64,000 nt of DNA, from positions 72,576-136,575 of the forward strand of contig JAFZDO010000041.1 in NCBI GenBank assembly GCA_017561145.1. Direction: 5' to 3'. The notes beneath the pieces are model-generated. The model was not told the DNA's origin. It did no database searches and saw only the letters and a program-made list of their open reading frames with translations. Positions 9,033 through 37,391 of the stretch are shown here, piece after piece. This DNA is from Clostridia bacterium. Its GTDB lineage: Bacteria; Bacillota; Clostridia; Oscillospirales; CAG-382. Position 1 is the stretch's first letter, and each line of letters opens with the position of its first letter. The translations under genes were made by a program, and so were the position numbers.

Positions 9033-9114
9033 AATATGCCTCAAATGTCGGCTTTTGTCGTATCTTGAGAATTATAACACTTTTTTAACATTTTTGCAAT
9101 AGTTATCGGTGTTT

Positions 9115-11562: not shown

Positions 11563-12210
11563 ATGGCAAGAATACTTATTGTTGAGGACGAGCGTCCGAT
11601 ACGCAACCTGATACAGCGTAATTTGGAGCTTATCGGTCATACCTGCGTCGGAGTGGGCGACGGTGTGAGCGCGCTCGAGGTTATGGCCAACGAGCGCTTC
11701 GATCTGATGATCTTCGATATAATGCTTCCCGGTGTTTCGGGATACGAGCTTATCGGGCATGCAAACGGCACACCGACGATATTCGTTACCGCAAAAGAGG
11801 GCATTAACGACCGTTTAAAGGGTCTTTCGCTCGGCGCTGACGATTATATCGTAAAGCCGTTCGAGATCCAAGAGCTGATCCTTCGCGTACGGGCGGTTTT
11901 AAGAAGAACGAAAAAAGACGACAAAAGGCTGGAATTTGACGATATCGTTATCGATTTTTCGGCAAAAAAGGTGTTTAAAAACGGTCTCGAGGCGATTCTT
12001 ACACCAAAAGAATATTCTCTTTTGGAAACGCTTGTGCTTAACCGAAACATAGCCCTCTCGCGAGAGAAGCTGATAAATCTCGTTTGGGGCTTTGATTACG
12101 AGGGCGACACCCGTACCGTCGACGTGCATATCCGACAGCTCCGCGCAAAGCTCGGGCTGACCGACAGATTAAAGACCCTCTACAAGACGGGGTACAGATT
12201 CGAGCTATGA
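11563..12210 (+). CDS. OmpR-family response regulator
   Basis: Receiver domain (ILIVEDE, DLMIFDIMLPG) plus a winged-helix DNA-binding C-terminus (RTVDVHIRQLRAKL). Confidence 0.9.
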   Translation: MARILIVEDERPIRNLIQRNLELIGHTCVGVGDGVSALEVMANERFDLMIFDIMLPGVSGYELIGHANGTPTIFVTAKEGINDRLKGLSLGADDYIVKPFEIQELILRVRAVLRRTKKDDKRLEFDDIVIDFSAKKVFKNGLEAILTPKEYSLLETLVLNRNIALSREKLINLVWGFDYEGDTRTVDVHIRQLRAKLGLTDRLKTLYKTGYRFEL

Positions 12211-14677: not shown

Positions 14678-15817
14678 TCAGGGCTTTTTAACGGTATCCT
14701 TAATGCTTTCGTAAACAAACTGTGCGAAGGGCCTATACGTATCGTCCTTCGGGTGAAGTCCGTCTACGAAAACGGATTCGTTTTCCAAGGACCACGCGTG
14801 AAGGTCAACGATCTGAAGCTTTTTGTCGTTTGCGATATCCTTAAGCAAGGGAGTTACGTATTTATCGAGGTTTGCGTTCCACGCATCGGCATTCCATTCG
14901 TCGTTGCCGACCTTGAAAAGCGCACTCGGCAGAAGCATAATGATCTGAACGTCGGGCTTTACGGCTTTAAATTCATTAAAAAGCTCGTTCGTGCTTTGGA
15001 TAAATTTATTTGCTCTGTCGTTCTCTTCGTTTTCCCAATTCTTATAGGGTTGATTCGGTGTGGGATTTGCGTCGTTCGTACCGAGCGCGAAAAGCACTAC
15101 GTCGGGCTTGAAGCTCTTTGCCTGCTGGAATTCGGGCGACTTCTTATAAGCAAACTGATCGGTGCTTACAATAGAATAGCCGGAAATACCTGCATTGAAC
15201 ACGTAATAATCAAGTCCGAGCATTTCTTGAAGAAATACGGGATAGGTCTTGTTTTTGTTAGTAGATGTAGCGCCGTAGGTGATGCTGTCGCCGACACACG
15301 CAACTCTTACAACCTTCTTTTCGCCTTCGAATTTCATATCTGTCACCTTTTCGGATTCGGAAAGTTTTGTTAAAAACGCTTCACTCGCGCCCAAAGCACC
15401 GTTTGCATAGGTAGCCGCAAAAAGAACCTTTTTATCTTTTACCTCAACGCAATATTTGCCGATATCGTATCTTGCGGTATAATCCTTGCAGATATCGCGG
15501 TTGTCGATAACGCCGAAAATGATTTCATATTCATTTTCCTTGGCAGAATCGGTCACACAGCGAAGCGAAACGCCATACTCTGCCTTGACCTTTTTGATAA
15601 ACGACTGTGCCGCGGTGCTGAATTTCGCCGCGTCGCCGCTGTTGTTCTTGAAAACAACCGTAAACTTGGAAAGTGATACTCCGTTAATTTTGGGAATCTT
15701 TATTTCAACGGGTTTCGAAGCCTCTGCCGAGCTTTCCGAAGACTCTTCATCGCCGCACGCGGCAAGACAAAATACGAAGGTTAACGCGAGAAAAAAGCAC
15801 AAAAATCTTTTGATCAT
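14678..15817 (-). CDS. SGNH/GDSL-type esterase lipoprotein
   Basis: Lipobox LAAC. C-terminal domain has VGDSITYG (block I), GTNDA (block III) and DGLHP (block V). The N-terminal ~150-aa domain is unknown. Confidence 0.8.
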   Translation of the reverse strand: MIKRFLCFFLALTFVFCLAACGDEESSESSAEASKPVEIKIPKINGVSLSKFTVVFKNNSGDAAKFSTAAQSFIKKVKAEYGVSLRCVTDSAKENEYEIIFGVIDNRDICKDYTARYDIGKYCVEVKDKKVLFAATYANGALGASEAFLTKLSESEKVTDMKFEGEKKVVRVACVGDSITYGATSTNKNKTYPVFLQEMLGLDYYVFNAGISGYSIVSTDQFAYKKSPEFQQAKSFKPDVVLFALGTNDANPTPNQPYKNWENEENDRANKFIQSTNELFNEFKAVKPDVQIIMLLPSALFKVGNDEWNADAWNANLDKYVTPLLKDIANDKKLQIVDLHAWSLENESVFVDGLHPKDDTYRPFAQFVYESIKDTVKKP

Positions 15818-17637: not shown

Positions 17638-19608
17638 ATGAAAAAACATATTTTCCCGATATTTTTATCTATATTGCTGCCCTTTTCGGCAATGCTTTAC
17701 TCCTGCTCGACCGAATCGGAGGAGGCAAGCACGCCCGAATCCGAAAGCGAAATTGCTATCGCCGAGTCCGAGACCGTCAACGAGGAGACTACGTCCGATA
17801 CCTCTGACACTGCGTCGGAAGAAGCCTCGGATAACACCTCGAGCGACGTTTCGGACGAAAGCGATGAAGCAATCAAAAACGAACCGATAATCCGCCCGAC
17901 CGACTACCCGACGCTTTGCGGAAGCTTTATGCAGGCTACGATGTTTAAGGACTATTCCTATGACCGTATGAAGGCGCATTTGCAAAATATGTACGACGTA
18001 GGAATTGATATTCTTATCGTGCAATGGACCTTTGAAACGACCTCTGACGGCGTTAAAAGCGTTCTTTTTGATGACAGCTTCGGCGCTGACGAAAAGACCG
18101 CGGACTTTGACGGAAGCGGTAGTGCTACGCTTGAAACGATATTAAAAGCATCCGAAGAGATCGGTATAAAGGTTTTTATCGGTCTCAACGACAATGCGGA
18201 GTGGTGGCAAAAATCTGTCACCGACAAAAATTGGATAGAACAGCAATCCAAGCTCGGCCTTGACGGCGCAAAGCAGATGCACGAAAAATACAAAACGCTC
18301 TACCCCAACGCATTTTACGGCTGGTATTTCGTTTTCGAGTTTTATAATATGCAGGCGCCCGAGCAGTTGCTTGACAACGCGGCTTATCTTTTAAACCTCT
18401 ACCGCGACGGGCTTTACGGCATCGACCCCGAAATGCCGATGATGCTATCACCTTATATTTCTGCATCCGGCGCTTCTCCCGATGACACTCAAAAGCTTTG
18501 GACGAGAGTTTTCGGCAAGACGAATTTCAGAAGCGGAGACATATTCTGCTGTCAGGATTCTGTCGGTGCGGGACACATTACGATCGACAGACTTGATGCA
18601 TACTACAGCGCGATAAAGAACGCAGTCGACACTAAAGCCGAGCTCAGATTCTGGGCAAACAACGAGTGCTTCACCCAATCCGACTGGACGACCGCACCGC
18701 TCGACAGATTTGTCGAACAGATGAACATATCTTCGAAATACGTCGAGGCACACATCACCTTTGCCTATTCACACTACGCAAATCCCGACACCGGAAAAAC
18801 GGGATACCACCTTGCATACAAAAAATATTACGAAACGGGAAAGATTCCCGAATCGATTCTCAAAAAGCCCGAAATAACCTTTACGTCCGAATCGTCGGGT
18901 GCTACCGTTAAGATAAGCGGCAGTATACAAAACCCCGACAAAACGCTTATGGGAGTACGTATTTACAAAGACGGCGAGATGATAAAGCTTATCGACCTTT
19001 CGGCACAGTACGGCAAGCCAAGCTATGATATAAGCCTTACAGATTACAACTTAAACGGAAGCGGTAAAGCAAAATATTCGGTCTGCGGTGTCGATTATTA
19101 TAACAACGACGGCGAAGCGGTTGAGTTCGAGGTTGATTTTAAGGGTAAAAACGGCAAAAACGTCGCAATAGGCAAGGCCTACAGCATTCTCACACCGCCC
19201 GAGGCGAATTACCCCGATGAAGACGGCAAAGCGCTTACCGACGGCATTTTTGGCAAAGAAGCCTACTGGAGCCCCGAATGGGTAGGTTTCCTTACCAAGC
19301 CCGAGATCGTCATAGACCTCGGCAAGACCGAAAAGAGCATTTATGCAATCGAGGTCAACACCTTAGGCGGCGGAAATGCGGCGGTATATGCCCCGACCGA
19401 AATAACGGTGTTTGTTTCCGATGACGGTAAGAATTTTAAGCAGGTATCCTTTGAAGCCTTTTCTCCCGATCTCGGCGTTGACTCCCAAAAAGCAATCATG
19501 CGCGGCGTTATGCTCGGCAACGAGGCTTCGGGCAGATACGTAAAAATAGCAATAGGAACCAACCAAAGCTGGATCTTCATTGACGAAATAAGCATTTACG
19601 CGGAATAA
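17638..19608 (+). CDS. Lipoprotein with a DUF4434-like (glycoside-hydrolase-like TIM barrel) domain and a C-terminal F5/8 type C (discoidin) domain
   Basis: Lipobox LYSC, acidic S/T/E-rich stalk, central region with ILIVQWTFE as I recall for DUF4434, and a C-terminal discoidin-like pattern (GRYVKIAI...WIFIDEISIY). Confidence 0.7.
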   Translation: MKKHIFPIFLSILLPFSAMLYSCSTESEEASTPESESEIAIAESETVNEETTSDTSDTASEEASDNTSSDVSDESDEAIKNEPIIRPTDYPTLCGSFMQATMFKDYSYDRMKAHLQNMYDVGIDILIVQWTFETTSDGVKSVLFDDSFGADEKTADFDGSGSATLETILKASEEIGIKVFIGLNDNAEWWQKSVTDKNWIEQQSKLGLDGAKQMHEKYKTLYPNAFYGWYFVFEFYNMQAPEQLLDNAAYLLNLYRDGLYGIDPEMPMMLSPYISASGASPDDTQKLWTRVFGKTNFRSGDIFCCQDSVGAGHITIDRLDAYYSAIKNAVDTKAELRFWANNECFTQSDWTTAPLDRFVEQMNISSKYVEAHITFAYSHYANPDTGKTGYHLAYKKYYETGKIPESILKKPEITFTSESSGATVKISGSIQNPDKTLMGVRIYKDGEMIKLIDLSAQYGKPSYDISLTDYNLNGSGKAKYSVCGVDYYNNDGEAVEFEVDFKGKNGKNVAIGKAYSILTPPEANYPDEDGKALTDGIFGKEAYWSPEWVGFLTKPEIVIDLGKTEKSIYAIEVNTLGGGNAAVYAPTEITVFVSDDGKNFKQVSFEAFSPDLGVDSQKAIMRGVMLGNEASGRYVKIAIGTNQSWIFIDEISIYAE

Positions 19609-25887: not shown

Positions 25888-25919
25888 TACCGCTTGTTTG
25901 TTCAAGCGGTATTTTTTTG
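25888..25919 (+). terminator. Rho-independent terminator
   Basis: taccgcttg-tttgtt-caagcggta stem then T7. Confidence 0.85.
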
Positions 25920-25974: not shown

Positions 25975-26003
25975 TTGACTTTGAAGAAAGCAAATGGTAC
26001 AAT
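25975..26003 (+). promoter_or_regulatory. Promoter of polA
   Basis: TTGACT (25975-25980), 17-nt spacer, TGg-TACAAT (25998-26003). Confidence 0.7.
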
Positions 26004-26033: not shown

Positions 26034-28511
26034 ATGGGCAAGGCATTGATTTTTGACGGAAACAGCATATTGAACCGCGCTTTTTACGGTGTGCGTCCCT
26101 TGACCGCGCCCGACGGTACGCCGACGAACGCGCTTTACGGATTTATCGGCATGATAAACAAGGCGATATCTCAGATCGGCGGCAACCCTTCGTATGCGGC
26201 GATCGCGTTTGACCTTAAAGAAAAAACCTTCCGACACAAGGCGTGTGACAGCTACAAGGCAACGCGCAAGCCGATGCCCGAGGAATTGGCGCTTCAATTA
26301 CCTATCGCACATGAGATTGCAACCGCTTTGGGCTTGCAGGTCATTGAGATACCCGGCTATGAGGCAGACGATATTCTCGGCACGCTTTCCTACGAATTCA
26401 CGAAAATGGGCGAGCATACCTTTATCGTAACCGGCGACCGCGACAGCTTTCAGCTTGTAAACGAAAACGTAACCGTTTTACTCGCCGCAAACGACGAAAC
26501 GAAGGTTACGACACCGAAGGAAATTTTTGAAAAATACGGCGTTGAGCCGAAAAAGCTTATCGACGTCAAGGCGATAATGGGCGACAGCTCCGATAACATC
26601 GCAGGCGTTCCCGGTATCGGAGAAAAGGGCGCGACAAAGCTTATTGCCGAATACGGCTCGCTCGACGGCGTTTACGAAAATATCGATAAGATCACGGGAG
26701 CTACCAACAAAAAGCTCGCCGACGGAAAGGAAAGTGCGTATATTTCACGCTTCCTCGCCGAAATAAAGCTCGACGTTCCGCTTAATTGCGCTCTTGACGA
26801 CTGTCTTTACAAGGGCGGTGACGTTTTAAGACTGCGCGATATATATACCCGTCTCGGCTTCCGTCAATTCCTCGAAAAGCTCGATACCGTCGCTCCCGAG
26901 GCGGCATCCGACGAGGAATTCAAGCCTATCGGCACACTAGATGCGACCGGCAAGACGGTCTACCTCCACTGTGAGGACGAAAAGCTTTTTGTTTCCTGCG
27001 AAAACGCTCTCTATTTGGGCGATGCAAAGGATATTGCACGTCTGTCGGGATGCGATAGCTGCGTTTGCTGGTCGGCCAAGGACGCTTTGCACATTGCAAA
27101 GAACGAGAACGCGGAATTCTGTTCCAAGCTTGACGACGTTTCGCTTCTCGCATACGTAGTGTCCCCTGCCGACAACGGCGTAACGTTTGGCAAGCTTGCG
27201 CTCGATATGCTCGGCGTTTCATCGAGTGACGTCAAGGTTTCGCTTTTGCCCGACATTTACGGCAAGCTTAACGAAAAGATCACCGAGGAGCAACGCTCGC
27301 TTTACGAGAACATCGAGCTTCCGCTCGCAAACGTGCTTTGCGATATGGAGCATCGCGGTTTCAAGGTGGACAGATTTGCGCTTGACAGCTTCGGTGCTCA
27401 GCTTGATGCGGCAATAACCGAGGGCGAAGAGGCGATATGGTCGCTCGCAGGCGAAAAATTCAACATAAATTCCCCCAAGCAGCTCGGCTCGATACTTTTT
27501 GAGGACCTCGGTCTTCCCCATTTCCGCAAGACGAAAAGCGGTTATTCGACCGACGTTTCGGTTTTGGAAAAGCTTGTCGATTATCACCCGATAATCGAGC
27601 ATATACTTGATTACCGCAAGGATACGAAGCTGAAAAACACCTATTGCGACGGCTTGGGCAAGCAGATTACCGAAGAGGGACGGATACACACGACCTTCAA
27701 GCAGACCCAAACGCTTACAGGTCGGCTTTCCTCGGCAGAGCCGAATTTGCAAAACATCCCCGTGCGAAGTGAAAAGGGCAAGGAATTGCGTCGATTCTTC
27801 GTTGCAGACGAGGGAAATATTCTTATCGACGCCGACTATTCGCAGATCGAGCTTCGCGTGCTCGCACACGTGTCGGACGACGAAACGCTTATCAACGCCT
27901 TTTTAAGCGGTGAGGATATCCACACCGTTACGGCAAGTCAGGTGTTCGGCGTGCCTGCCGAATTTGTGACAAGCGAAATGAGAAAGCGCGCCAAGGCGGT
28001 CAACTTCGGTATAATCTACGGCATAGGCGATTACTCGCTTTCGCAGGATCTGAAGATACCGAAAAAGGTCGCGGCGGAATATATCAAAAGCTACCTTGCA
28101 AAATACAGCGGTGTTTCGGAATATCTCGAATCGACAAAAAGCTTTGCCCGTGAAAACGGATACGTAGATACGATATTCGGCAGAAGGCGCTATATTCCCG
28201 AAATAAACGCAACCAACAAAAATCTTCAGGCGTTCGGCGAGCGAGTCGCGATGAACACACCGATACAGGGCGCGGCGGCAGACCTGATAAAGATCGCAAT
28301 GATCCGCACCGACAAAATGCTTCGCGAGGCGGGATTAAAAGCACGTCTTATACTGCAGATACACGACGAGCTGATAATCGAAGCTCCTATCGAAGAGGCG
28401 GAAAAGGCGGAAGCGATCCTGCGCGAAGCGATGCAGGGCGCGGCAGACCTTAAGGTACCGTTGCAGGTAGACGTCGGAACAGGCAAAAGCTGGTTCGATG
28501 CAAAGGATTAA
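26034..28511 (+). CDS. polA: DNA polymerase I
   Basis: 825 aa. 5'-3' exonuclease domain (GYEADDILGT), polymerase motifs DYSQIELRVLAH (motif A), RRxAKAVNFGIIYG (motif B) and QIHDELI (motif C). Confidence 0.95.
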   Translation: MGKALIFDGNSILNRAFYGVRPLTAPDGTPTNALYGFIGMINKAISQIGGNPSYAAIAFDLKEKTFRHKACDSYKATRKPMPEELALQLPIAHEIATALGLQVIEIPGYEADDILGTLSYEFTKMGEHTFIVTGDRDSFQLVNENVTVLLAANDETKVTTPKEIFEKYGVEPKKLIDVKAIMGDSSDNIAGVPGIGEKGATKLIAEYGSLDGVYENIDKITGATNKKLADGKESAYISRFLAEIKLDVPLNCALDDCLYKGGDVLRLRDIYTRLGFRQFLEKLDTVAPEAASDEEFKPIGTLDATGKTVYLHCEDEKLFVSCENALYLGDAKDIARLSGCDSCVCWSAKDALHIAKNENAEFCSKLDDVSLLAYVVSPADNGVTFGKLALDMLGVSSSDVKVSLLPDIYGKLNEKITEEQRSLYENIELPLANVLCDMEHRGFKVDRFALDSFGAQLDAAITEGEEAIWSLAGEKFNINSPKQLGSILFEDLGLPHFRKTKSGYSTDVSVLEKLVDYHPIIEHILDYRKDTKLKNTYCDGLGKQITEEGRIHTTFKQTQTLTGRLSSAEPNLQNIPVRSEKGKELRRFFVADEGNILIDADYSQIELRVLAHVSDDETLINAFLSGEDIHTVTASQVFGVPAEFVTSEMRKRAKAVNFGIIYGIGDYSLSQDLKIPKKVAAEYIKSYLAKYSGVSEYLESTKSFARENGYVDTIFGRRRYIPEINATNKNLQAFGERVAMNTPIQGAAADLIKIAMIRTDKMLREAGLKARLILQIHDELIIEAPIEEAEKAEAILREAMQGAADLKVPLQVDVGTGKSWFDAKD

Positions 28512-28559
28512 AACGAATGATGAAAGGCCACGGATAAATATACGTGTGAAATAAATACT

Positions 28560-30110
28560 ATGGAACTTAAAAATCTCAACGGCAGAAAAGCAAGAATGCT
28601 GCTTGTTTACCCCGACTATACCGACCGCGAGCTCACAGGTAAGCTCACCGGCGGTAACTACAGCGAAGGCTTAGCATCCATCTCGGCAGTTATGAAGCAG
28701 GGCGGTCACGACGTCAAGCTTATGCACCTGCTCTATCTCCATAACGAGCAGGAATTCAAGGAAAAGCTTAAGGCCTTGGGCGAATTCGATATTATCGGTT
28801 TTTCGATCCGTACCACCGCTTTCCCCGATAGCCAGCTTTATATTAAATGGACAAGAGAAGTCTGCCCCGACGTTCTTATTACCGCGGGCAGCTATCACTG
28901 CACACTCGCACCCGAAGAGGTAATCGCACTCGACGATCTCGATGCATTGACCATCGGTGACGGCGAATATCAGGCGCTTGAGCTTGCAGACAAGATGAGC
29001 GCAGGCGAGGATTATACCAACATCCTTTCGATGTGGTTCAGAATGGACGACGGAAGCATTAAAAAGAACCCCGTTGCTCCCCTCTTTGCCGATCTTGACA
29101 GACTTCCCATCCCCGACTTTGATCTTTTCGATTACGACAACCTCGACAGCGTTAAGGTTGGTACTGCGATCGTTATGATGAGCCGCGGATGCAGATACAA
29201 CTGTACCTATTGCGGCAACTCGCAGTTCAGAAACGTTTACCCCAACAAGAAGATCTATTCTCGTTTCCGTTCGCCCCAAAACGGTATTCTTTATCTCAAG
29301 ACTCTTCTTGAAAAGCATCCCCAGATCAAGGTCATCAACTTCCGTGACGCTATCTTCAATATGATGCCCGATTGGACCGAGGAATTTTTGGCGCTCTATA
29401 CCAAGGAGATCCATCTTCCCTTCACCGGTAACATCCGCTTTGACATCCTTACCGAGGAATCGGTTCGTTTGTTGAAGGAGGCGGGATGCTATACCATCGA
29501 TATGGGTCTCGAAAGCGGCGATCAGGAAATGCGCTTTAAGTATCTCAAGCGCTATATGACCGACGAAATGATCATCAACTGCAGCAAGTGGTTCCACAAG
29601 CACGGTATCGCTCAGCTTACCTATAACATAATCGGTCTTCCCTATGAGGACAAGCACCGCGCGCTTAAAACGATCAAGCTCAACGCAAAGGCAGGTGCCG
29701 ACCGCGTTATCCCCAACATCTTCTATCCCTATCCCGGAACAAAGCTTTACGATATCGCGAAGGAAGGCGGCTTTATCCCCGAGGGCGGCGTTTCGCCCGA
29801 TGCGCGCGTGCCGCTCGTTCAGCCTCAATTCCCTGAGCACGAGGTTTTGTATTTGCAGGCATATTTCTCTCACTTCGTAAGAAGATACAAATGGGCTTAC
29901 GCGATGCCCAAGTGGCTCGGAAAGCCTTATGAAAAATGGCTCGACCACCGCGCAACAGGTAAGCACGTTCCCTATAAGCTTCTCGTTAAGCTTCACGACG
30001 GCTATGCAAAGGTTCGCAACGGCCTTAAAAACTTCCTCGTTGACCATCTCCCCAAGGTCTATATGAAGCTTCGCGTGCTCAAGCACCGCAAGAGAGCAAA
30101 GAAAGTTTAA
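28560..30110 (+). CDS. B12-binding-domain radical SAM protein (class B)
   Basis: 516 aa. N-terminal Rossmann-like B12-type domain (ITAGSYHCTLAPEE) followed by SRGCRYNCTYC (CxxxCxxC). No terminator separates it from polA or rsmI. Confidence 0.85.
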   Translation: MELKNLNGRKARMLLVYPDYTDRELTGKLTGGNYSEGLASISAVMKQGGHDVKLMHLLYLHNEQEFKEKLKALGEFDIIGFSIRTTAFPDSQLYIKWTREVCPDVLITAGSYHCTLAPEEVIALDDLDALTIGDGEYQALELADKMSAGEDYTNILSMWFRMDDGSIKKNPVAPLFADLDRLPIPDFDLFDYDNLDSVKVGTAIVMMSRGCRYNCTYCGNSQFRNVYPNKKIYSRFRSPQNGILYLKTLLEKHPQIKVINFRDAIFNMMPDWTEEFLALYTKEIHLPFTGNIRFDILTEESVRLLKEAGCYTIDMGLESGDQEMRFKYLKRYMTDEMIINCSKWFHKHGIAQLTYNIIGLPYEDKHRALKTIKLNAKAGADRVIPNIFYPYPGTKLYDIAKEGGFIPEGGVSPDARVPLVQPQFPEHEVLYLQAYFSHFVRRYKWAYAMPKWLGKPYEKWLDHRATGKHVPYKLLVKLHDGYAKVRNGLKNFLVDHLPKVYMKLRVLKHRKRAKKV

Positions 30111-30112
30111 TT

Positions 30113-30943
30113 ATGGCAGGAACACTTTATATCGTACCTACCCCCATCGGCAATATGGGTGATATGACTCCGCGCGCAAAAGAGGTTTTGGAAAGCGTCG
30201 ATTTCGTCGCGAGCGAGGACACGCGCGTAGGAGGCAAGCTTTTAATGCTTTTGGGCATCAAAAAGCCGCTTGTGAGCTATCACGAGCATACGAGCAAAAA
30301 CGCCACCGATTCGATAATCGAGCGCATCAAATGCGGCGAAAGCTGTGCGCTCATTACCGATGCAGGCACGCCTGCGGTAAGCGACCCCGGCGAAAAGCTT
30401 GTAAGCGCCTGCGCCGAAGCGGGAGTTGAAATAACCGCACTCCCGGGAGCGTGCGCGGCGGTAACGGCAATATCTGCTTCGGGATTGGCATCGAGAAGAT
30501 TCTGCTTCGAGGGATTTCTTCCCGAAAACAAGCGTGAAAGACGCGAAAGAATCGAGGAATTATCACGCGAGAAGCGCACCTTTATCCTTTATATCTCTCC
30601 GCACGATATCGACGGCTATCTCCCTGAATTGGCAGATAAGCTTGGCGACCGCAAATGCATTCTCGCCAAGGAGCTTACCAAGATCCACGAGCGCTATTTC
30701 CGCGGTACGGTAAGCGAAATTGCCGAAAAATTCCAATCCCTCTCCCCTTCCGAAAAGAAGGGCGAATTCGTTATGATCTGCGAGGGTATGAGCGAAGAGG
30801 ACGCCTTCTGGAAGGATATGTCGATTGAGGAGCACGTCGACCACTATATTTCGCTCGGACTTTCGAAAATGGACGCCTGCAAGGCAACCGCGCGCGACCG
30901 CGGTGTTGGCAAGGGCGAGATCTACAAAAGCGTAAACAACTGA
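30113..30943 (+). CDS. rsmI: 16S rRNA (cytidine1402-2'-O)-methyltransferase
   Basis: LYIVPTPIGNMGDMTPRA...VASEDTR...ITDAGTPAVSDPG is the RsmI/tetrapyrrole-methylase-fold signature. Confidence 0.9.
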   Translation: MAGTLYIVPTPIGNMGDMTPRAKEVLESVDFVASEDTRVGGKLLMLLGIKKPLVSYHEHTSKNATDSIIERIKCGESCALITDAGTPAVSDPGEKLVSACAEAGVEITALPGACAAVTAISASGLASRRFCFEGFLPENKRERRERIEELSREKRTFILYISPHDIDGYLPELADKLGDRKCILAKELTKIHERYFRGTVSEIAEKFQSLSPSEKKGEFVMICEGMSEEDAFWKDMSIEEHVDHYISLGLSKMDACKATARDRGVGKGEIYKSVNN

Positions 30944-30956
30944 AAGGACTGTTTTC

Positions 30957-32363
30957 ATGAGATCTTTCGGGATCAGATTTTTAATAACTCTCCTCATTTT
31001 TTGCCTTACTTTTCCCTTTTTTACAGTCAACGCTCAAGGCGAGGCTGTGGAAATCGTTTTGTCGTTCGACGGCGAAGCATACCGCGGAGGCACGATGATG
31101 CTCACCGTTTCGGTGAAAAAGCCGTCCGTCGCACTTGCAGGGCTTGAATTCACACTTGAATACGACAACAAATACGTCAAGCCTCAAATTACCGAAAACA
31201 ACGAAGACGTGCTTGAAATGAACGCACTTGTTTCTTCGAAGCCGAACGGTTGGGAACAGATAAGTAGCCACAAGGACGGTATTTACACCTTCCGATTCGC
31301 TTCGGCGTTCGATAGCTCGGATATGCTCGACAAGGAAAACGAGCTTGTTTTAAGCATTCCTTTTACCGTCCAAGCGGCAGGCTCGTTTGACTTTTGCGTT
31401 GCAAGCGGCGATATATTGGCGGTTGCAAACGATAAGGAAAGCACGGTTTATTCGGGCAAGGGCGGTAACATTTCGGTCGTTGCCGCAAGCGAAGCACAAA
31501 AGATCGGCATCGGTACAAAGGGTGCCGATACCGCTAACGAAAAGGGCGAATATCTGCTTCAGGTCGAAACGCTCAACCTCGGCGACGCAAGCGGAATCGT
31601 TGCGTTTGAATTTGACCTTACCTATGACAAAAGCGTTTTCGCGCCTGTTGTAAAGACCAACGAAAACGAAGAAATGAACGTCTTTATGCAGGATATGCCG
31701 GGCGATTGGGAGCAGATGTGCTCGTTTGACGAGGCAAAGGGCAGATACACACTTCGTTTCGCCGCAAAAAACGCCGAATCGCTCACAAATGCCGACGTTC
31801 TTAAATCGGGCGAAAAAGCAATCCTTTCCATTCCCTTCAAGGTTATCGGAAGCGAGGGCAACGTCGCTTCGTTTACGGTAGACTCGGCATCTGTCATCGG
31901 CTTGAGCTGTTCAAACGTCATTCTCTCCGGCACGGGAAGCGTCAAGTCGGTTTCTATCGAAAAAGCGCCTTCAGGCACCATTCCCGACGATATCGGATAT
32001 ATTATTAAAGACGGATTTTTGATGTACGTCGACGAAAAGACCAAGGTTTCCGATTTCTTAAAGCCCTTCGGCTCTGCCTTTTCGGTAAATTCAAAAGGTG
32101 AGTATATTTGTACCGGTGACGTCCTTACCGACGGAAACGCCATTGCTCTTACAATAATCGTCCGCGGCGATATAAACGGCTCGGGCGATATCGAAAAATA
32201 CGATTATATCCTCGTAAAGCGCTACTGTATGAACACGATCGCGTTCAGCGATGCACAGCTTCTTGCCGCAGATGCAACCAACGACGGCAAGATCGACAGA
32301 TACGATTACATCCGAATCAAGCGCCACTGTCTTGGTACTTTTACTATAAAGGAAGACCGATAA
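30957..32363 (+). CDS. Secreted protein with two cohesin-like modules and a C-terminal dockerin
   Basis: Signal peptide ending VNAQG. Two internally repeated modules (LAGLEFTLEYD...LSIPFTV and VAFEFDLTYD...LSIPFKV). Dockerin F-hand pair GDINGSGDIEKYDYILVKRY / DATNDGKIDRYDYIRIKRH. Confidence 0.75.
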   Translation: MRSFGIRFLITLLIFCLTFPFFTVNAQGEAVEIVLSFDGEAYRGGTMMLTVSVKKPSVALAGLEFTLEYDNKYVKPQITENNEDVLEMNALVSSKPNGWEQISSHKDGIYTFRFASAFDSSDMLDKENELVLSIPFTVQAAGSFDFCVASGDILAVANDKESTVYSGKGGNISVVAASEAQKIGIGTKGADTANEKGEYLLQVETLNLGDASGIVAFEFDLTYDKSVFAPVVKTNENEEMNVFMQDMPGDWEQMCSFDEAKGRYTLRFAAKNAESLTNADVLKSGEKAILSIPFKVIGSEGNVASFTVDSASVIGLSCSNVILSGTGSVKSVSIEKAPSGTIPDDIGYIIKDGFLMYVDEKTKVSDFLKPFGSAFSVNSKGEYICTGDVLTDGNAIALTIIVRGDINGSGDIEKYDYILVKRYCMNTIAFSDAQLLAADATNDGKIDRYDYIRIKRHCLGTFTIKEDR

Positions 32364-32366
32364 ATT

Positions 32367-32813
32367 ATGATCAAAAGGTTATTTGCCGTTCTTTTGGCGG
32401 CTTTTACGGTTTTTTCACTCGCAGCCTGCACAGCTCAATATGAAAAGGCCGATAATTATGCAAGAAACTTCATTTCGGCGCTCTGTCTTGGCGACGAGGC
32501 AAAAATGAAGGAATACACTCACCCCGATTATACCGACCAAGCGATTCCCGACGAAGCCTTTTATGAAACGCTTTCTACCCAATTTTTCACCGTCGGCAAC
32601 GAAATGACGGAGTTAAACGGCGTCGGCAAGGCAAATCTTGAAAACGAAGAATCGTTCGACGGCGAGGTTATGAAATGCACCTACGTTGCACGCGTCAACG
32701 AGCTTTTTTACACCGTCGAGCTTATCACTCTCGAAAACGACAACGGCTACGGCATCGTTTCCGTTGCGATGGTGCTTAACACCGATTTAGATTATTATTT
32801 TCAAGGTGAATGA
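32367..32813 (+). CDS. Small lipoprotein, unknown function
   Basis: Lipobox LAAC, 148 aa. Starts 3 nt after the cohesin gene stop; its stop overlaps the YitT start (ATGA). Confidence 0.6.
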   Translation: MIKRLFAVLLAAFTVFSLAACTAQYEKADNYARNFISALCLGDEAKMKEYTHPDYTDQAIPDEAFYETLSTQFFTVGNEMTELNGVGKANLENEESFDGEVMKCTYVARVNELFYTVELITLENDNGYGIVSVAMVLNTDLDYYFQGE

Positions 32814-33679
32814 TGAAAAAATTTTCAACGACCTTCAAAAATTACACTTTAATAACTGTCGGATGCGTTCTTTTCGCGGCAGGCGTTTCGATTTTTCTTG
32901 AGCCTAACCAGCTTGCTTCGGGCGGCGTTTCGGGTCTCGGCATCATTCTTAACAGCTTTATCGACTTCATCCCCGTCGGTATGTGGTCGATCATCTTCAA
33001 CATACCGATAATGATCTGCGGAGTTTGGAAGCTCGGCGCAAAAATCCTTGTGCCCACCTTCTATGCGCTTGCGGTAAGCTCGGGCGTTATGACTTTGTTT
33101 GAATTGTTCTGCCCTCCCATCACTTACAATCCCATGCTCGCGTGTGTGTGTGGCGGTGCGCTTGTTGCGGCAGGTGTAGGACTTGTTTTCCGCGGCGGCG
33201 CAACCACGGCCGGCACCGATATTATCGTAAAGCTTTTAAGACTTAAATACCGCCATATTTCGACCGGCGCTATCTTTCTTTTCGCAGACGGCTTGGTATG
33301 TCTTACATCGGGCTTTGTATTCAACAACTTCGAAAACGCGCTTTACGCGGCGATTTCCTTGTTTATCCAGATGTTTGTGCTCAATATGGTGCTTTACGGC
33401 TCGGATGAAGCAAGAATGGTTTATATCATCAGCGACCGTGACGAGATCATCGCAAAGCGCCTTCTTGAAGAGATCGATGCGGGCGCTACCTATTTGTACG
33501 GCAATGGCGCTTACACAGGCAAGGACCGCAAGGTGCTTATGTGCGCGCTTAAGATGCGTGCCGTCCCCCAAGCGCGTGAGATCATCCGCCAAGAGGACAG
33601 CGACGCATTCGTTATCGTTACCAAAGCAACAAACGTATTCGGTGAAGGCTTTAAGAGTCACGTTGAGGAAGATCTATGA
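32810..33679 (+). CDS. YitT family membrane protein (with DUF2179-like C-terminal domain)
   Basis: LITVGCVLFAAGVSIFLEPNQLASGGVSGLGIIL is typical of YitT. Soluble C-terminal domain with the VIVTKATNVFGEGF ending. Confidence 0.85.
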   Translation: MMKKFSTTFKNYTLITVGCVLFAAGVSIFLEPNQLASGGVSGLGIILNSFIDFIPVGMWSIIFNIPIMICGVWKLGAKILVPTFYALAVSSGVMTLFELFCPPITYNPMLACVCGGALVAAGVGLVFRGGATTAGTDIIVKLLRLKYRHISTGAIFLFADGLVCLTSGFVFNNFENALYAAISLFIQMFVLNMVLYGSDEARMVYIISDRDEIIAKRLLEEIDAGATYLYGNGAYTGKDRKVLMCALKMRAVPQAREIIRQEDSDAFVIVTKATNVFGEGFKSHVEEDL

Positions 33680-34749
33680 TACGTGAAACGGTCGAAGCAC
33701 TTCCTTCGCTTATCGACACTCTGAAAAACGAAGAACGGAAAATATTCCTTTACGGAATGGGCAACGGCGCAGAAAAAATATATGCCTATCTTATCTGTCA
33801 CGGCATAGAGATCGATGGTGTCGTCGCGTCAGACGGATTTGTTCGCGGTCAGGATTTTTTGGGGTTTAAGGTGATTTCAATAACCGAAGCAAGCGAAAGA
33901 TACGGCTCGCTATGTTTGATCCTTTGCTTTGGTCTCGAGGGCGAAAAATCGCATTTTTTAACCGATCTGGCAAATAATCACCGCATACTTTCACCTAATC
34001 TTCCGGTTTTCGGCGACGGTGCTTGCGACAAGGATTTTATTCTCGAAAACGCCGAATCGTTTGAGCGCGTTTATGAAATGCTTGCCGACGGCGAATCTAA
34101 GGAAATATTTTTAAACATACTCAAATATAATGTCACGGGCGAGATAGCTTTTCTCGAAAAGGGAAAGTCGCTTGATTGCCCCGAGGAGTTTTACAACCAC
34201 GAAAAAAGGCATATCGACGTAGGCGCATACGACGGCGATACTGTTTTGGAATTTACAGAGCATAGCGATAAATACAACGATATCGTTGCGTTTGAGCCGG
34301 ATGTGCTCACCTTCCGTCATTTCAAAAGAAACACCGAAGACATTCGCGATTGCATCGGCATAAACGCCGCCGTCGGCAGATACGACAGAAAGGTTTCGTT
34401 TGCATCGGGCGGCGGAAGAGCATCGCACTGCGAAGCTTTCGGCGAAGGAACGGTCGATTGCGTTTCTATCGACAAATTCTGCGGCTTCACACACATCAAT
34501 GCAAGCGGCACACCCGTCGGCAGTATCAAGATCGATGCCGAGGGCATGGATGAGGACGTTATCTGCGGTGCGGTCAACACGATATATTGCTGCAAGCCAC
34601 ATTTGGCAGTCGCGCTTTACCATCGCGCGTCCGATTTGATCGACCTGCCGTTGCTTATAAGAAAGCACTATCATAAATACGAATTTTATTTGAGAAAAAA
34701 GGAATACGTCCCTGCCTGGGATATATTCCTCTATGCTATAAAACGGTAA
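33676..34749 (+). CDS. FkbM-family methyltransferase with an extra N-terminal Rossmann-like domain
   Basis: HIDVGAYDGDTVLEF and IKIDAEGMDEDVI match FkbM motifs. The ~150-aa N-terminal extension (KIFLYGMGNGAEKIY) is additional. ATGA overlap with the YitT gene. Confidence 0.75.
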   Translation: MIRETVEALPSLIDTLKNEERKIFLYGMGNGAEKIYAYLICHGIEIDGVVASDGFVRGQDFLGFKVISITEASERYGSLCLILCFGLEGEKSHFLTDLANNHRILSPNLPVFGDGACDKDFILENAESFERVYEMLADGESKEIFLNILKYNVTGEIAFLEKGKSLDCPEEFYNHEKRHIDVGAYDGDTVLEFTEHSDKYNDIVAFEPDVLTFRHFKRNTEDIRDCIGINAAVGRYDRKVSFASGGGRASHCEAFGEGTVDCVSIDKFCGFTHINASGTPVGSIKIDAEGMDEDVICGAVNTIYCCKPHLAVALYHRASDLIDLPLLIRKHYHKYEFYLRKKEYVPAWDIFLYAIKR

Positions 34750-34765
34750 ATACGGAGGTATTTTA

Positions 34766-35269
34766 ATGTCTTTTAAAGAAATAAAGCCGTCGGATATCAA
34801 CAGTTCGGTTTTTACTGATATCGGAAGCAAATGGATGCTTATCAGCGCACAAAAGCCCGACGGAAGCATTAACACGATGACAGCAAGCTGGGGTACCATG
34901 GGCGTACTTTGGAATAAAAATATTTTTGTTTGCTTTGTAAGACCTCAACGCTTTACTCACGAATTTACCGAAGCGAGCGACAGGATATCGATCTCGTTTT
35001 TCGGCGAGGAATACCACGAAGCGCTTACGGTTTGCGGCAGAAAAAGCGGCAGAGATTGCGATAAGATAAAGCTTGCCGGTCTCACACCGTTTACCACCGA
35101 AAACGGTGTCGGATTTAACGAAGCCGAGCGCATTATCTACGGCAAAAAGATATACGTCGGCAAGCTTGACCCGAAATGCTTCCTTTCGGATGATATCGAA
35201 AAGCATTACAACAACGACTACCACACCGTATATATCTGTGAAATAGAAAAGATCGAAGAAAAGGAATAA
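34766..35269 (+). CDS. Flavin reductase-like (flavoredoxin) domain protein
   Basis: 167 aa. NTMTASWGT...FVRPQRFT pattern typical of the flavin reductase-like FMN-binding family. Confidence 0.75.
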   Translation: MSFKEIKPSDINSSVFTDIGSKWMLISAQKPDGSINTMTASWGTMGVLWNKNIFVCFVRPQRFTHEFTEASDRISISFFGEEYHEALTVCGRKSGRDCDKIKLAGLTPFTTENGVGFNEAERIIYGKKIYVGKLDPKCFLSDDIEKHYNNDYHTVYICEIEKIEEKE

Positions 35270-35275
35270 CATAAA

Positions 35276-36559
35276 ATGCGCGTCAACGAACTTATAACTG
35301 CAATAAACAACGGCGATTACGACAACGTGATCAAAAAGCTTTACCCCAACAAGGATATTATCAACAGAAGAGAACGCTTAATAAAGCTTGCAAACGATTT
35401 TTCCGAGCTTTACGGCGATATGGACGTAACTCTTTTCTCGGTCCCCGGCAGAACCGAGCTTTCGGGTAACCATACCGACCACAACAACGGCAGAGTTCTT
35501 GCCGCAAGCGTAGATATCGATATCATTGCCATCGCATCAAAGGTCGAAGGTAGCACCGTCCGCATTAAATCGGTAGGCTACCGCGAGGATGCCGTTGACA
35601 TAAAAGATCCCTCTCCCGAAAACGTTCGCAAGGGTAGCTCCTCGGCGATAATTTCGGGCATTGCCGATTATTTCAACAAGCACGGATACGTATCGGGCGG
35701 ATTTTACGCCTATACCACAAGCGACGTTATGACCGGCTCGGGACTTTCGTCCTCCGCCGCTTTCGAAGTTATGTGCGCGCGCATCTTCTCGGAATTTTAC
35801 AATGACGGCAAAATCCCCGCAATGGAGCTTGCAAAGGCAGGCAAATATGCAGAAAACGAATTTTTCGGAAAGCCCTGCGGACTTATGGACCAAGCCGCTT
35901 GCGCTTCCGGTGGTTGCTTGTGGATGGATTTTGAAAACAATACCGACCCCAAAACCGAAAAGATCGATTTTGATCTTTCCAAATACGGTTATTCGCTTTG
36001 CATCGTAAATACGGGCGGCAACCACGCCGACCTTACCGAGGATTACGCGGCAGTGCCTTCCGAAATGCGTTCTATCGCGGCGCTTATGGGTAAAACCGTT
36101 TTGCGTTGCTGTGATGAAGAAGATTTTATGGGAAGAATTTCCTATCTCCGCACGCTCGTCGGCGACCGCGCAATTATGCGCGCAATGCACTATTTTGCCG
36201 AAAACAAGCGTGTTGACGCTCAAAGGGATGCACTCTCCAACGGCAGGATCGACGAATATCTTAACCTCGTTACCGCATCCGGTAATTCCTCGTTCAAATT
36301 CCTTCAAAACGTATTTACCACTCACAACGTAAGTGAGCAGGGCATCTCGCTCGCACTTGCTATTACCGAGCGCTTCGGTGCGGTTTGCCGTGTGCACGGC
36401 GGCGGCTTTGCAGGCACGGTTCAGGCATACATCCCCACCGAAAAGGTAGCAGACTACAAAAATACCGTTGAAGCGGTATTCGGCGAAAACGCTTGTAACG
36501 TTTATACCATCCGTCCTTACGGCGCGGCTGTGGTTACTAAGGAAGATATTATAGGTTAA
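35276..36559 (+). CDS. galK: Galactokinase (GHMP kinase)
   Basis: PGRTELSGNHTDHNNGRVLA (galactokinase signature) and GSGLSSSAAFEV (GHMP ATP motif). Confidence 0.85.
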   Translation: MRVNELITAINNGDYDNVIKKLYPNKDIINRRERLIKLANDFSELYGDMDVTLFSVPGRTELSGNHTDHNNGRVLAASVDIDIIAIASKVEGSTVRIKSVGYREDAVDIKDPSPENVRKGSSSAIISGIADYFNKHGYVSGGFYAYTTSDVMTGSGLSSSAAFEVMCARIFSEFYNDGKIPAMELAKAGKYAENEFFGKPCGLMDQAACASGGCLWMDFENNTDPKTEKIDFDLSKYGYSLCIVNTGGNHADLTEDYAAVPSEMRSIAALMGKTVLRCCDEEDFMGRISYLRTLVGDRAIMRAMHYFAENKRVDAQRDALSNGRIDEYLNLVTASGNSSFKFLQNVFTTHNVSEQGISLALAITERFGAVCRVHGGGFAGTVQAYIPTEKVADYKNTVEAVFGENACNVYTIRPYGAAVVTKEDIIG

Positions 36560-37350
36560 TGGAAAAAGCTAAGGTTTATATGCTCTTTTCCTCGTCAAAG
36601 GGAAATTGCGCATACATAAAATACGGCAGGGACGAAATACTTATCGATTGCGGTGCATCGGCAAGAGCGATCGACTGCGCACTCAAATCGCTGGGAACAA
36701 GCCTTTGCAATATAAACGCCGTGTTCATCACGCATGAGCACAGCGACCATATCCGCGGACTTAATGCGATATCGAAGCATATAAACGCAAAATTCTATGC
36801 ACCCGAGGGATGCTTAGATTATATTTCGACCTATATGCATAACGCGAAAAGGCCGTTTGCGCTTGTGTCAAACACGCCGATAAAGCTTTATGACCTTGCT
36901 GTCTGTCCGATCCCCACGCCGCACGATGCAAGAGGAAGCGTCGGCTTCCGCATCCTTGCAGGAGAAGAACGGATAGGCTATTTCACCGATATCGGACATC
37001 TTTCCGAGGGTCTTTTACGCGGACTTTCAGGCTGTGAAAGAGTCGTTATCGAGTCGAATCACGATATTGAAATGTTAAAAAACGGAAGCTATCCTTATTC
37101 CTTAAAGCAAAGAATACTCGGCGCGACAGGCCACCTTTCGAATGAAATGTGCGCCAAGCTCCTTCCCCATCTTGCACACCACGGAAGCAGATCGTTTATG
37201 CTCGCCCATCTTAGCGAGGAAAACAACACTCCAGAAATCGCATTTGACGAATGCCTATGCTCCTTAAAGGAAGCAGGCTTTTCGGTTTGCGAGGATGGCG
37301 GAATCAACCTTGCCGTCGCACCGGTTTGCGGTGTTGCCGAGCTTGTATAA
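36559..37350 (+). CDS. MBL-fold metallo-hydrolase
   Basis: ITHEHSDHIRGL (HxHxDH motif). TAATG overlap with galK. Confidence 0.8.
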   Translation: MEKAKVYMLFSSSKGNCAYIKYGRDEILIDCGASARAIDCALKSLGTSLCNINAVFITHEHSDHIRGLNAISKHINAKFYAPEGCLDYISTYMHNAKRPFALVSNTPIKLYDLAVCPIPTPHDARGSVGFRILAGEERIGYFTDIGHLSEGLLRGLSGCERVVIESNHDIEMLKNGSYPYSLKQRILGATGHLSNEMCAKLLPHLAHHGSRSFMLAHLSEENNTPEIAFDECLCSLKEAGFSVCEDGGINLAVAPVCGVAELV

Positions 37351-37356
37351 AAAACA

Positions 37357-37391
37357 AAAGACAGAGAATACAAAATTCTCTGTCTTTTTTG
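37357..37391. terminator. Bidirectional terminator
   Basis: aaagacagagaat-acaaa-attctctgtcttt 13-bp stem flanked by A and T runs. Confidence 0.9.

Follow-up and report, generated by a model that had tools for sequence, protein, structure and literature searches.

Several described proteins carry cohesins and a dockerin on one polypeptide. The adaptor scaffoldins ScaC and ScaH of Ruminococcus flavefaciens are precedents for this combination, and the same system has documented functional dockerins with a single calcium-binding repeat, the group 2 dockerins (PMC12270676). Amy4/Sca1 of Ruminococcus bromii likewise joins a cohesin and a dockerin, and its self-recognition has been demonstrated; in the R. 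bromii amylosome dockerins are also borne by LRR proteins, peptidases and proteins of unknown function (PMC4611034). The window analysed here, a 64-kb stretch of DNA from a Clostridia bacterium, encodes a further protein of this kind, CohDoc (ORF 30957-32363; Table 1). We lean towards reading CohDoc as a secreted, non-catalytic, adaptor-type mini-scaffoldin that serves a non-cellulolytic surface-display network and is the passenger of a housekeeping operon, which would make it a small connector of the kind that gut bacteria use to assemble surface proteins.

Table 1. Features of the CohDoc locus (positions in the window)
Feature	Position	Strand	Basis and remarks
Terminator-like hairpin closing the upstream unit	25888..25911	+	9-pair stem, 5 GC pairs, T-run
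Best promoter-like site on this strand	25975..26003	+	30 nt before polA; TTGACT-17-TACAAT
polA, B12-binding radical SAM (28560-30110), rsmI-like TP_methylase (30113-30943)	26034..30943	+	Pfam; gaps 48, 2, 13 nt
CohDoc, signal peptide	30957..31034	+	aa 1-26; predicted cleavage after VNA; type I, without lipobox
CohDoc, cohesin module 1	31038..31490	+	aa 28-178; Pfam Cohesin stretch 41-142; AF2 beta-sandwich
CohDoc, cohesin module 2	31494..31964	+	aa 180-336; internal duplicate of module 1
CohDoc, middle module, ~65 aa, alpha/beta	31968..32165	+	aa 338-403; uncharacterised; X-Doc-like dyad
CohDoc, dockerin, type-I-like, two canonical Ca loops	32166..32342	+	aa 404-462; Pfam Dockerin_1
148-aa lipoprotein, NTF2-like fold	32367..32813	+	Lipobox; AF2 pLDDT 89; Foldseek
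YitT-family 5-TM membrane protein, C-terminal DUF2179	32810..33679	+	Pfam PF02588 + PF10035
Cytoplasmic FkbM-family methyltransferase, N-terminal Rossmann-like domain	33676..34749	+	Pfam PF05050, TIGR01444
Flavin reductase-like gene, galactokinase, MBL-fold hydrolase	34766..37350	+	Pfam; gaps 16, 6, -1 nt
Strong bidirectional terminator ending the ten-gene block	37356..37388		14-pair stem, T-run on both strands

Architecture of CohDoc

The original prediction placed CohDoc at the head of four ORFs, all of which were found exactly at their predicted coordinates, and described it as a secreted protein with two cohesins and a dockerin. That description is borne out by Pfam scores above threshold, the AF2 model and fold matches to solved cohesins. 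From the N to the C terminus the protein consists of a signal peptide, two cohesins, the middle module and the dockerin, and no domain other than Cohesin and Dockerin_1 reaches its cutoff in the Pfam scan. The signal peptide, as read from the sequence, has a basic n-region, a hydrophobic core and the motif VNA/QG; P20 and A26 are conserved, and the AF2 monomer (pLDDT 88, pTM 0.60) has residues 2-21 in a helix and then low confidence over 19-25. CohDoc carries no anchor of its own. Non-catalytic, secreted judging by its signal peptide and with cohesins and a dockerin on one chain, CohDoc has the architecture of an adaptor scaffoldin, which could take up dockerins and also dock onto another cohesin, as had been proposed and as HMMs, fold matches and a PDB profile search agree.

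The Pfam Cohesin family (PF00963) matches CohDoc over two stretches with 33.5 bits (cutoff 24.1). The two modules are repeats of each other (BLASTP E=9e-14), the HMM of each matches the other with 88 and 68 bits, and an invariant WEQ motif is common to both. The internal repeat had thus been recognised correctly, but the modules are about 150 aa long and not ~115 aa. In Foldseek comparisons with the solved cohesins 2vo8, 2jh2, 6kgf and 4fl4 they reach target-normalised TM scores of 0.57-0.79 (2vo8, 0.79 with an rmsd of 3.0; 2jh2, 0.67-0.75; 6kgf, 0.69-0.71; 4fl4_K, 0.57). Their sequences are very divergent: alignments with solved cohesins span some 50 residues and get no better than E=0.02-0.2, and most CohDoc orthologues have precomputed Pfam cohesin matches graded 'faint' or 'weak'.

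The middle module between cohesin 2 and the dockerin did not figure in the original account. It has no sequence match in Pfam or the PDB, and AF2 assigns secondary structure to residues 349-402. About 70 of the best 150 representative matches to the CohDoc family profile cover positions ~345-471 only, and the middle module therefore travels with the dockerin. The dockerin itself, predicted to be C-terminal with two Ca loops, scores 42.3 bits against Dockerin_1 (PF00404; cutoff 22.9; aa 404-457), and both loops, DINGSGDIEKYD and DATNDGKIDRYD, read as canonical; the family profile matches solved dockerins (E between 1e-14 and 1e-6). Across the family loop 1 alone is conserved. Loop 2 is canonical in the window's own clade, whereas most orthologues have a degenerate version of it within a second repeat of full length.

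The genes behind CohDoc and the ten-gene block

The identities that had been assigned to the downstream trio are confirmed by the lipobox, Pfam and TIGR01444. In the lipobox (LAAC) of the lipoprotein, Cys21 is invariant in 20 orthologues and also in a set of 31 sequences, and Foldseek matches its model to DUF4783 and NTF2-like proteins, a fold that is neither a cohesin nor a known dockerin receptor. The next ORF matches YitT_membrane (E=2.5e-55, 187.5 bits) and DUF2179 (E=1.1e-18, 67.3 bits), the latter part also matching PDB 3hlu (E=4e-20). The methyltransferase scores above cutoff with both Methyltransf_21/FkbM (PF05050; E=4.2e-10, 40.4 bits against 22.7) and TIGR01444 (E=1.6e-13, 51.3 bits against 37.7), and aligns with the FkbM structure 2py6 over aa 122-353 (E=2e-6). 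Its N-terminal domain contains a GxGxxG-like motif, YGMGNGAEK, its orthologues carry a precomputed PF22674 (C2185-like_N) match, and its sequence reads without a signal peptide.

The junctions are as tight as had been claimed, with a 3-nt gap (32363/32367) and ATGA overlaps at 32810 and 33676. The second of these is kept in 24 of 28 loci, and with so strong a conservation YitT and FkbM could well be linked in function. The four genes could in principle form a dedicated surface module, in which the lipoprotein helps to display CohDoc while YitT and FkbM export or methylate a surface component, and the spacing (3, -4 and -4 nt), the YitT-FkbM overlap and a gene order conserved in about 25 species-level MAGs would all suit such an arrangement. 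We nevertheless regard it as highly improbable. From polA to the MBL hydrolase (26034-37350) ten co-directional genes follow one another, all nine junctions measuring -4 to 48 nt, and the four are no more tightly packed than the rest. The predicted transcription signals bracket these ten genes: the promoter-like site before polA has 10/12 matches with an extended -10 TG, those inside the block are all at the chance level of 9/12 in the prediction scan, and the scans found no strong terminator besides the two hairpins of Table 1. In these scans the four genes have no promoter or terminator to themselves, and the "four-gene unit" of the original prediction gives way to a predicted unit of ten. 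Moreover, a literature search found no paper in which cohesin, dockerin and FkbM occur together. To judge from the predicted signals, CohDoc is probably a passenger on the constitutive transcript of this ~11-kb ten-gene housekeeping operon, and its close packing with the three genes that follow it is a gene order inherited within the operon.

A profile search of the 64-kb window found cohesins and a dockerin in CohDoc alone, in agreement with the earlier remark that neither scaffoldins nor dockerin-bearing enzymes flank the gene. Dispersed scaffoldin genes are normal in R. bromii-type systems. Scaffoldin genes do not usually occupy a fixed place in a housekeeping operon, and the position of CohDoc may hint at another role, intrinsic to the cell.

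Orthologues, synteny and co-evolution

The CohDoc orthologue family comprises 83 clusters of 34-99% identity with full-length coverage, and at 50% identity it has about 25 representatives; members with 24-31% identity keep the full architecture, and the length is constant at ~470 aa. The 22 species-level MAGs, all of ruminant-hindgut origin, have one copy each, and the family is vertically inherited in an uncultured clade of ruminant-hindgut Clostridia. The whole ten-gene block is conserved in about 30 related loci of these organisms, and the order reaches well beyond this strain. The four genes stay together only where the whole block is kept. Upstream, CohDoc follows polA-(rSAM)-rsmI in every locus in which that side is visible, including the distant relatives L032-L035, which have CohDoc without the lipoprotein, YitT and FkbM. 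Conversely, FkbM orthologues occur in other lineages (L028, L029, L031) without CohDoc, the lipoprotein and YitT, and in L028 the flavin reductase, galK and MBL genes still lie downstream of FkbM. Within the conserved block, the lipoprotein is missing in L004/L005 beside an intact CohDoc, and in L025 YitT and FkbM lie apart, with a 1.1-kb insertion between them. These breakpoints, along with the ten-gene signals, the nil mirror-tree result described below and the NTF2-like fold of the lipoprotein, speak against the distinct surface-assembly or surface-modification module that had been suggested, and the cytoplasmic character of FkbM adds to this.

In the partial mirror-tree comparison CohDoc scores -0.02 with YitT and 0.14 with FkbM (not significant), and 0.28 with the lipoprotein, below the control genes MBL (0.56) and rsmI (0.40). 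By this tree-based measure CohDoc shows no specific co-evolution with its neighbours. A narrower association could still be imagined, in which CohDoc and the lipoprotein are a pair, the NTF2-like protein anchoring CohDoc, for instance via the dockerin or middle module, with YitT and FkbM unrelated. Wherever the lipoprotein gene is present it lies next to CohDoc (gaps -4 to 26 nt), the lipoprotein family is limited to the CohDoc lineage (44 clusters only), and both proteins diverge at about three times the rate of the housekeeping genes (mean distances 0.87 and 0.85 versus about 0.3); an anchor would also supply what CohDoc lacks. This pairing seems quite unlikely to us, as CohDoc persists intact where the lipoprotein is missing (L004/L005 and L032-L035), their partial correlation falls short of the control pairs and dockerin receptors with an NTF2-like fold are not known. 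The three genes behind CohDoc are its neighbours by descent, and nothing found links their functions to it.

What comes next in the distant CohDoc loci is either spoIIAA-spoIIAB-sigF, as in L034, or convergent genes. This adjacency, the fixed housekeeping place behind polA-rsmI across the clade, the divergence of the cohesins with their own invariant WEQ motif and the degenerate second Ca loop would be in keeping with a protein whose cohesins no longer bind dockerins, and which retains the folds as a structural component of the cell envelope or one associated with sporulation. We judge this very unlikely: the spoIIA adjacency occurs in one lineage only, neither it nor that to rsmI has a functional logic, and the matching dockerin and dyad proteins and 'WE'-subtype cohesins of related genomes, described next, argue for a working network.

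Dockerin carriers and the proposed role of CohDoc

In related genomes the same dockerin subtype is found on GDSL esterases, BspA-type LRR proteins, CotH, NAGPA/FIVAR and F5/8-type-C proteins, and the sampled dockerin-bearing proteins are neither cellulases nor hemicellulases. The dockerin of the GDSL esterase P0080 is 63% identical to that of CohDoc, a GDSL esterase with a dockerin is encoded 2.4 kb from the CohDoc orthologue on the same contig in L035, and L029 has a NAGPA protein with a dockerin. Related genomes also encode further carriers of the dockerin or the dyad (P0080-P0083 among the carriers), other multi-cohesin proteins and additional cohesins of the 'WE' subtype. An anchoring scaffoldin of the SLH or sortase type was not identified.

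With these candidates in view, we infer that the cohesins of CohDoc would capture proteins that bear the dockerin subtype of its lineage, while its own dockerin would plug the complex into another cohesin. The receiving cohesin might be that of a further scaffoldin or of another CohDoc molecule, and in the second case multimers would form, as in R. bromii Amy4. The dockerin of CohDoc resembles the enzyme-borne dockerins, with which it has a helix signature in common, and self-binding is therefore equally possible; one cohesin type may bind both. Carried further, this would turn CohDoc into a self-polymerising matrix, its dockerin binding the cohesins of other copies to form chains or, as each dockerin comes with two cohesins, branched networks that surround the cell, with enzyme recruitment no longer the main role. 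The self-recognition of Amy4 is a precedent (PMC4611034), and a single-copy, constitutively placed gene would fit, but the pTM of the AF2 monomer is only 0.60 and most members have a degenerate second loop in the dockerin; we consider such a matrix unlikely, if worth keeping in mind. The adaptor-type mini-scaffoldin is the role that we prefer for CohDoc.

Comparison with known systems

Like ScaC and ScaH of R. flavefaciens, CohDoc is small, secreted and non-catalytic, with cohesins and a C-terminal dockerin. It differs from them in having two cohesins and an unrelated X-like module, its cohesin sequences are only remotely similar, and its gene lies outside a sca cluster, inside the polA-to-MBL block. 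Unlike with cellulosome adaptors, the sampled dockerin carriers near the CohDoc lineage are not cellulases or hemicellulases. R. bromii Amy4 shares the presence of cohesin and dockerin on one polypeptide but has a GH13 catalytic module, whereas CohDoc is non-catalytic and nothing points to a part in starch use. Structurally, the closest single-domain matches to CohDoc are the cohesins of Clostridium perfringens glycoside hydrolases (2vo8, 2jh2, 2w1n; target-normalised TM 0.67-0.79), non-cellulosomal cohesins whose pairing with dockerins is used outside cellulose degradation; these sit on large toxin-type enzymes, whereas CohDoc is a stand-alone two-cohesin protein.

The small module directly N-terminal to the dockerin, inherited with it as a unit, recalls the X-Doc dyads of C. 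thermocellum CipA (type II) and R. flavefaciens ScaB/CttA (XDoc). The X module of CipA is an Ig-like beta-sandwich, whereas the X-like one in CohDoc is a ~65-aa alpha/beta module, and the CohDoc profile matches the CipA X-Doc chain weakly (E=0.17). Finally, as in the group 2 dockerins of R. flavefaciens, most members of the CohDoc family keep one canonical Ca loop; unlike in that group, the second repeat is degenerate and not truncated, and in the window's clade it is canonical.

Modular structure of the cohesin-dockerin protein

All four open reading frames of the original prediction are present as described, and the first of them, CohDoc (468 aa), carries both domain types proposed for it, with Pfam scores above cutoff for Cohesin (33.5 bits against 24.1, in two stretches) and for Dockerin_1 (42.3 bits against 22.9, aa 404-457). 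The internal repeat is equally clear, since module 1 matches module 2 in BLASTP (E=9e-14) and the HMMs of the two modules cross-match. An AlphaFold2 model computed from 31 family sequences (mean pLDDT 88.2, pTM 0.60) divides the protein into the modules listed in the table. Its best single-domain PDB matches in Foldseek are true cohesins, among them C. perfringens 2vo8 (target-normalised TM 0.79), 2jh2, C. acetobutylicum CohA2 (6kgf) and C. thermocellum 4fl4. Against solved dockerins the family profile reaches E values between 1e-14 and 1e-6, but it matches solved cohesins only marginally in sequence, so the CohDoc cohesins are highly divergent, with a WEQ motif of their own that is invariant in the family. 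Divergence of this kind would also suit a structural protein that has lost dockerin binding, a reading that we regard as very improbable. With its cohesins, its dockerin and their adaptor-scaffoldin architecture, CohDoc shows the defining features for which it was examined; it has no catalytic domain and, as read from its sequence, no SLH domain, sortase motif or lipobox. The top Foldseek matches of the whole chain, to streptococcal AgI/II C-terminal domains and an integrin, were rejected as homologues (query-normalised TM 0.19-0.22, rmsd around 15), and were judged to express a generic likeness between tandem beta-sandwich domains.

The middle module of CohDoc has no Pfam match and no PDB sequence match. 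In a profile search, roughly 70 of the top 150 representative proteins match the middle module and dockerin only, mostly at the C-terminus. The module, some 65 aa long and directly N-terminal to the dockerin, recurs with it as a C-terminal dyad (proteins P0270-P0387) on carriers of many kinds (LRR, CotH, NAGPA, F5/8C, GDSL and other scaffoldins). It may represent an undescribed X-Doc-type family, perhaps worth description as a new one. The dockerin of the window's CohDoc has two canonical Ca loops; most family members, down to those at 24-31% identity, have a canonical first loop only, which suggests that a dockerin with a single binding mode is the common state. In the family alignments (A1, A5) the second loop is canonical in the window's own clade only and degenerate in most orthologues, the most distant included.

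Features of the window and of loci from related genomes (window positions unless a locus is named)
Feature	Position	Description
GDSL lipase	14678-15817 (-)	no dockerin
DUF4434 + F5/8-type-C protein	17638-19608 (+)	no dockerin
ORF, 544 aa	23008-24642 (+)	no Pfam match
Strong terminator	25888-25911	consensus scan
Promoter-like site	25975-26003	best site, directly before polA
Ten-gene block	26034-37350	polA to MBL hydrolase
B12-binding radical SAM	28560-30110 (+)	
Antisense ORF, 471 aa	28671-30086 (-)	opposite radical SAM
CohDoc (ORF1)	30957-32363 (+)	
Signal peptide	CohDoc N-terminus	helix (AlphaFold2)
Cohesin modules	aa 28-178 and 180-336	two beta-sandwiches (AlphaFold2)
Middle module	31968-32165 (about aa 338-403)	small alpha/beta (AlphaFold2)
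Dockerin	32166-32342	three helices (AlphaFold2)
Lipoprotein (ORF2)	32367-32813	
YitT/DUF2179 (ORF3)	32810-33679	
FkbM (ORF4)	33676-34749	
Antisense ORF, 262 aa	34111-34899 (-)	opposite FkbM
Strong terminator	37356-37388	consensus scan
ORF, 621 aa	43024-44889 (+)	no Pfam match
ORF, 570 aa	44932-46644 (-)	ECF-type sigma-70 regions 2 and 4 in first ~165 residues
L034, CohDoc orthologue	9512-10963	spoIIAA-spoIIAB-sigF directly after
L035, GDSL esterase	11858-12721 (-)	canonical two-loop dockerin
L036, paralogous pair	6222-9482	570-aa protein directly upstream of 493-aa Coh-Coh-X-Doc

Transcription unit and neighbouring genes

The tight junctions on which the four-gene proposal was built are real (a 3-nt gap and two ATGA overlaps), but the same tightness runs through ten co-directional genes spaced by -4 to 48 nt, in the order polA, B12-binding radical SAM, rsmI-like methylase, CohDoc, lipoprotein, YitT, FkbM, flavin reductase-like, galK and MBL hydrolase. 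The limits of this block are predicted from consensus scans, in which the only strong terminators around it lie at its two ends, the best promoter-like site precedes polA, and promoter matches inside are at chance level. Because the ten genes are equally tight and the predicted signals stand only at the block's ends, the coupling does not set the four apart. Each of the four has a Shine-Dalgarno-like motif, Rfam has no match over the whole 64-kb window, hence neither rRNA nor tRNA there and no riboswitch in the block, and their GC content (0.47-0.50) is that of the flanks, giving no sign of recent horizontal transfer. The two antisense ORFs within the block are most probably not genes but shadow ORFs.

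The lipoprotein returned nothing significant in Pfam, NCBIfam or PDB sequences. Its lipobox (LAAC, Cys21) is invariant across orthologues, and its confident AlphaFold2 model (pLDDT 89.2) is an NTF2-like cone whose nearest structures in Foldseek are functionally uncharacterised DUF4783 and NTF2-like proteins; the assignment comes from model and Foldseek, not from sequence. By its fold it is no cohesin, and the idea of a hidden cohesin or dockerin receptor was rejected. ORF3 has YitT_membrane and DUF2179 domains in Pfam and is a standard member of its family, for which the literature searched holds no functional characterisation. ORF4 is a Methyltransf_21/FkbM protein (Pfam; TIGR01444 in NCBIfam) that matches 2py6, a solved structure of FkbM, across aa 122-353 and has no signal peptide. 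The Rossmann-like N-terminal domain proposed as extra, with a GxGxxG-like motif and a precomputed match to PF22674 (C2185-like_N) in several orthologues, marks a known two-domain FkbM subtype. No paper that mentions cohesin, dockerin and FkbM together was found in the literature searched.

Elsewhere in the window, the 570-aa ORF with sigma-70 regions continues into a C-terminal extension of ~400 aa without Pfam match and may be a sigma/anti-sigma-like fusion. A gene of 515-528 aa, similar in size to the two large ORFs without Pfam match and itself without one, adjoins a PfkB kinase gene in three related loci (L001, L002, L004).

Conservation and breakpoints in relatives

The CohDoc family, whose members are about 470 aa long and 34-99% identical, falls into 83 clusters, with ~25 full-length representatives in an exhaustive profile search. 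A scan of species-representative genomes with nine closer family sequences found CohDoc once per genome in 22 MAGs, all of uncultured Clostridia or Eubacteriales from the hindgut of yak, sheep, goat, buffalo or roe-deer. When the ten window proteins were mapped, the whole block was kept in the first 27 loci with scattered losses of radical SAM (L003, L020), flavin reductase (L003, L004/5, L020, L023), lipoprotein (L004/5) and galK (L015), and a 1.1-kb insertion between YitT and FkbM in L025. All junctions are tight in the loci mapped, the YitT-FkbM ATGA overlap recurring in 24 of 28. CohDoc (median identity 46%) and the lipoprotein (54%) are the fastest-evolving genes of a block in which polA, galK and radical SAM stand at 77-92%. 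Radical SAM, separated from rsmI by 1-5 nt in almost every locus, is the most conserved block protein (74-98%, median 92%), above polA or galK.

The gene order is kept in ~25 species but breaks in more distant relatives, and a four-gene module is not supported. Distant loci read polA-radical SAM-rsmI-CohDoc followed by spoIIAA-spoIIAB-sigF (L034, a single distant lineage) or by convergent genes (L035), and polA-rsmI-CohDoc followed by a convergent gene (L032, L033). FkbM orthologues at 46-54% identity (L028, L029, L031) have no adjacent CohDoc, lipoprotein or YitT, and in L028 flavin reductase, galK and MBL hydrolase still follow. Since distant loci keep rsmI-CohDoc and lose the later genes, the ancestral partner of CohDoc is rsmI on its upstream side. 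That gene encodes a cytoplasmic rRNA methylase, for which no functional connection to CohDoc is conceivable. The conserved partners of FkbM seen outside the lineage lie downstream only (L028), and the four-gene arrangement is a lineage-specific juxtaposition.

A mirror-tree analysis, using partial correlations of pairwise distances over 19 loci controlled for polA and galK divergence, gave no specific co-evolution signal for any proposed partner of CohDoc: values were -0.02 with YitT, 0.14 with FkbM (not significant) and 0.28 with the lipoprotein, against 0.56 and 0.40 with the control genes MBL and rsmI. Such generic residual correlations, highest with controls, were rejected as evidence of functional pairing. 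An anchor pair of CohDoc and the lipoprotein has the NTF2-like fold, the loss in L004/5 and this correlation to contend with, and we consider it quite improbable. A new surface-assembly or surface-modification system of all four genes is unsupported, with the breakpoints, the missing co-evolution signal and the predicted transcription signals against it, and is the least probable reading of all. As a caution, start/stop overlaps and an order kept in ~25 species did not mark a functional module in this case, as only the breakpoints in more distant relatives revealed.

A wider dockerin network

As the original prediction held, the window contains no other cohesin or dockerin, and its other genes are ordinary; its GDSL lipase and DUF4434+F5/8-type-C protein resemble in kind the GDSL esterase and the DUF4434 gene of L035, but both lack dockerins. 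Sampled non-family matches of the CohDoc profile are other proteins with one to three cohesins and a dockerin, BspA-type LRR, CotH, NAGPA+FIVAR, F5/8-type-C, Flg_new and Ricin-lectin proteins, with no classical cellulases among them. The dockerin of one GDSL esterase (P0080) shares 63% identity and the helix signature with that of CohDoc, L035 encodes a dockerin-bearing GDSL esterase beside a DUF4434 gene 2.4 kb from the CohDoc orthologue, and L029 a NAGPA protein with dockerin. The Coh-Coh-X-Doc protein P0262 (L036) was set aside as a paralogue in another setting, adjacent to a protein of 570 aa with N-terminal domain, cohesin, middle module and dockerin; the pair shows that several scaffoldin-like proteins are present in these lineages.

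We lean, by a little, towards CohDoc as a mini-scaffoldin of the adaptor type in a surface-display network that is not cellulolytic. In this reading the cohesins would capture dockerins of the lineage's type, the X-Doc would dock onto a further cohesin, which may be one of CohDoc's own, and expression would come with the predicted housekeeping operon, in which the gene is a passenger. Self-binding has been shown for R. bromii Amy4 (PMC4611034), a precedent that a mainly self-polymerising matrix protein could also invoke; we find that reading improbable. A wider proposal, unlikely as it stands, is that the family is the vertically inherited, constitutively expressed cell-surface organiser of the whole uncultured ruminant-hindgut Clostridia clade, displaying BspA-LRR, CotH, NAGPA and GDSL esterase proteins rather than polysaccharide-degrading enzymes through divergent WEQ cohesins and a new X-Doc dyad in which frequently just one Ca loop works. 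If true, cohesin-dockerin assembly would be a housekeeping trait in this clade and not a nutritional add-on.

Comparison with known scaffoldins

The family adds an undescribed, well-conserved group of small cohesin-dockerin proteins from uncultured bacteria, and its network of adhesin-like and esterase proteins, not cellulases, supports the view that gut Firmicutes use the cohesin-dockerin pair generally as a means of surface display. CohDoc shares its architecture with the adaptor scaffoldins ScaC and ScaH (PMC12270676) and with the R. bromii precedent. It departs from them in its very divergent cohesins, its undescribed middle module, a dockerin that is often half-degenerate in the family, its fixed place in a housekeeping block and an apparently non-cellulolytic clientele.
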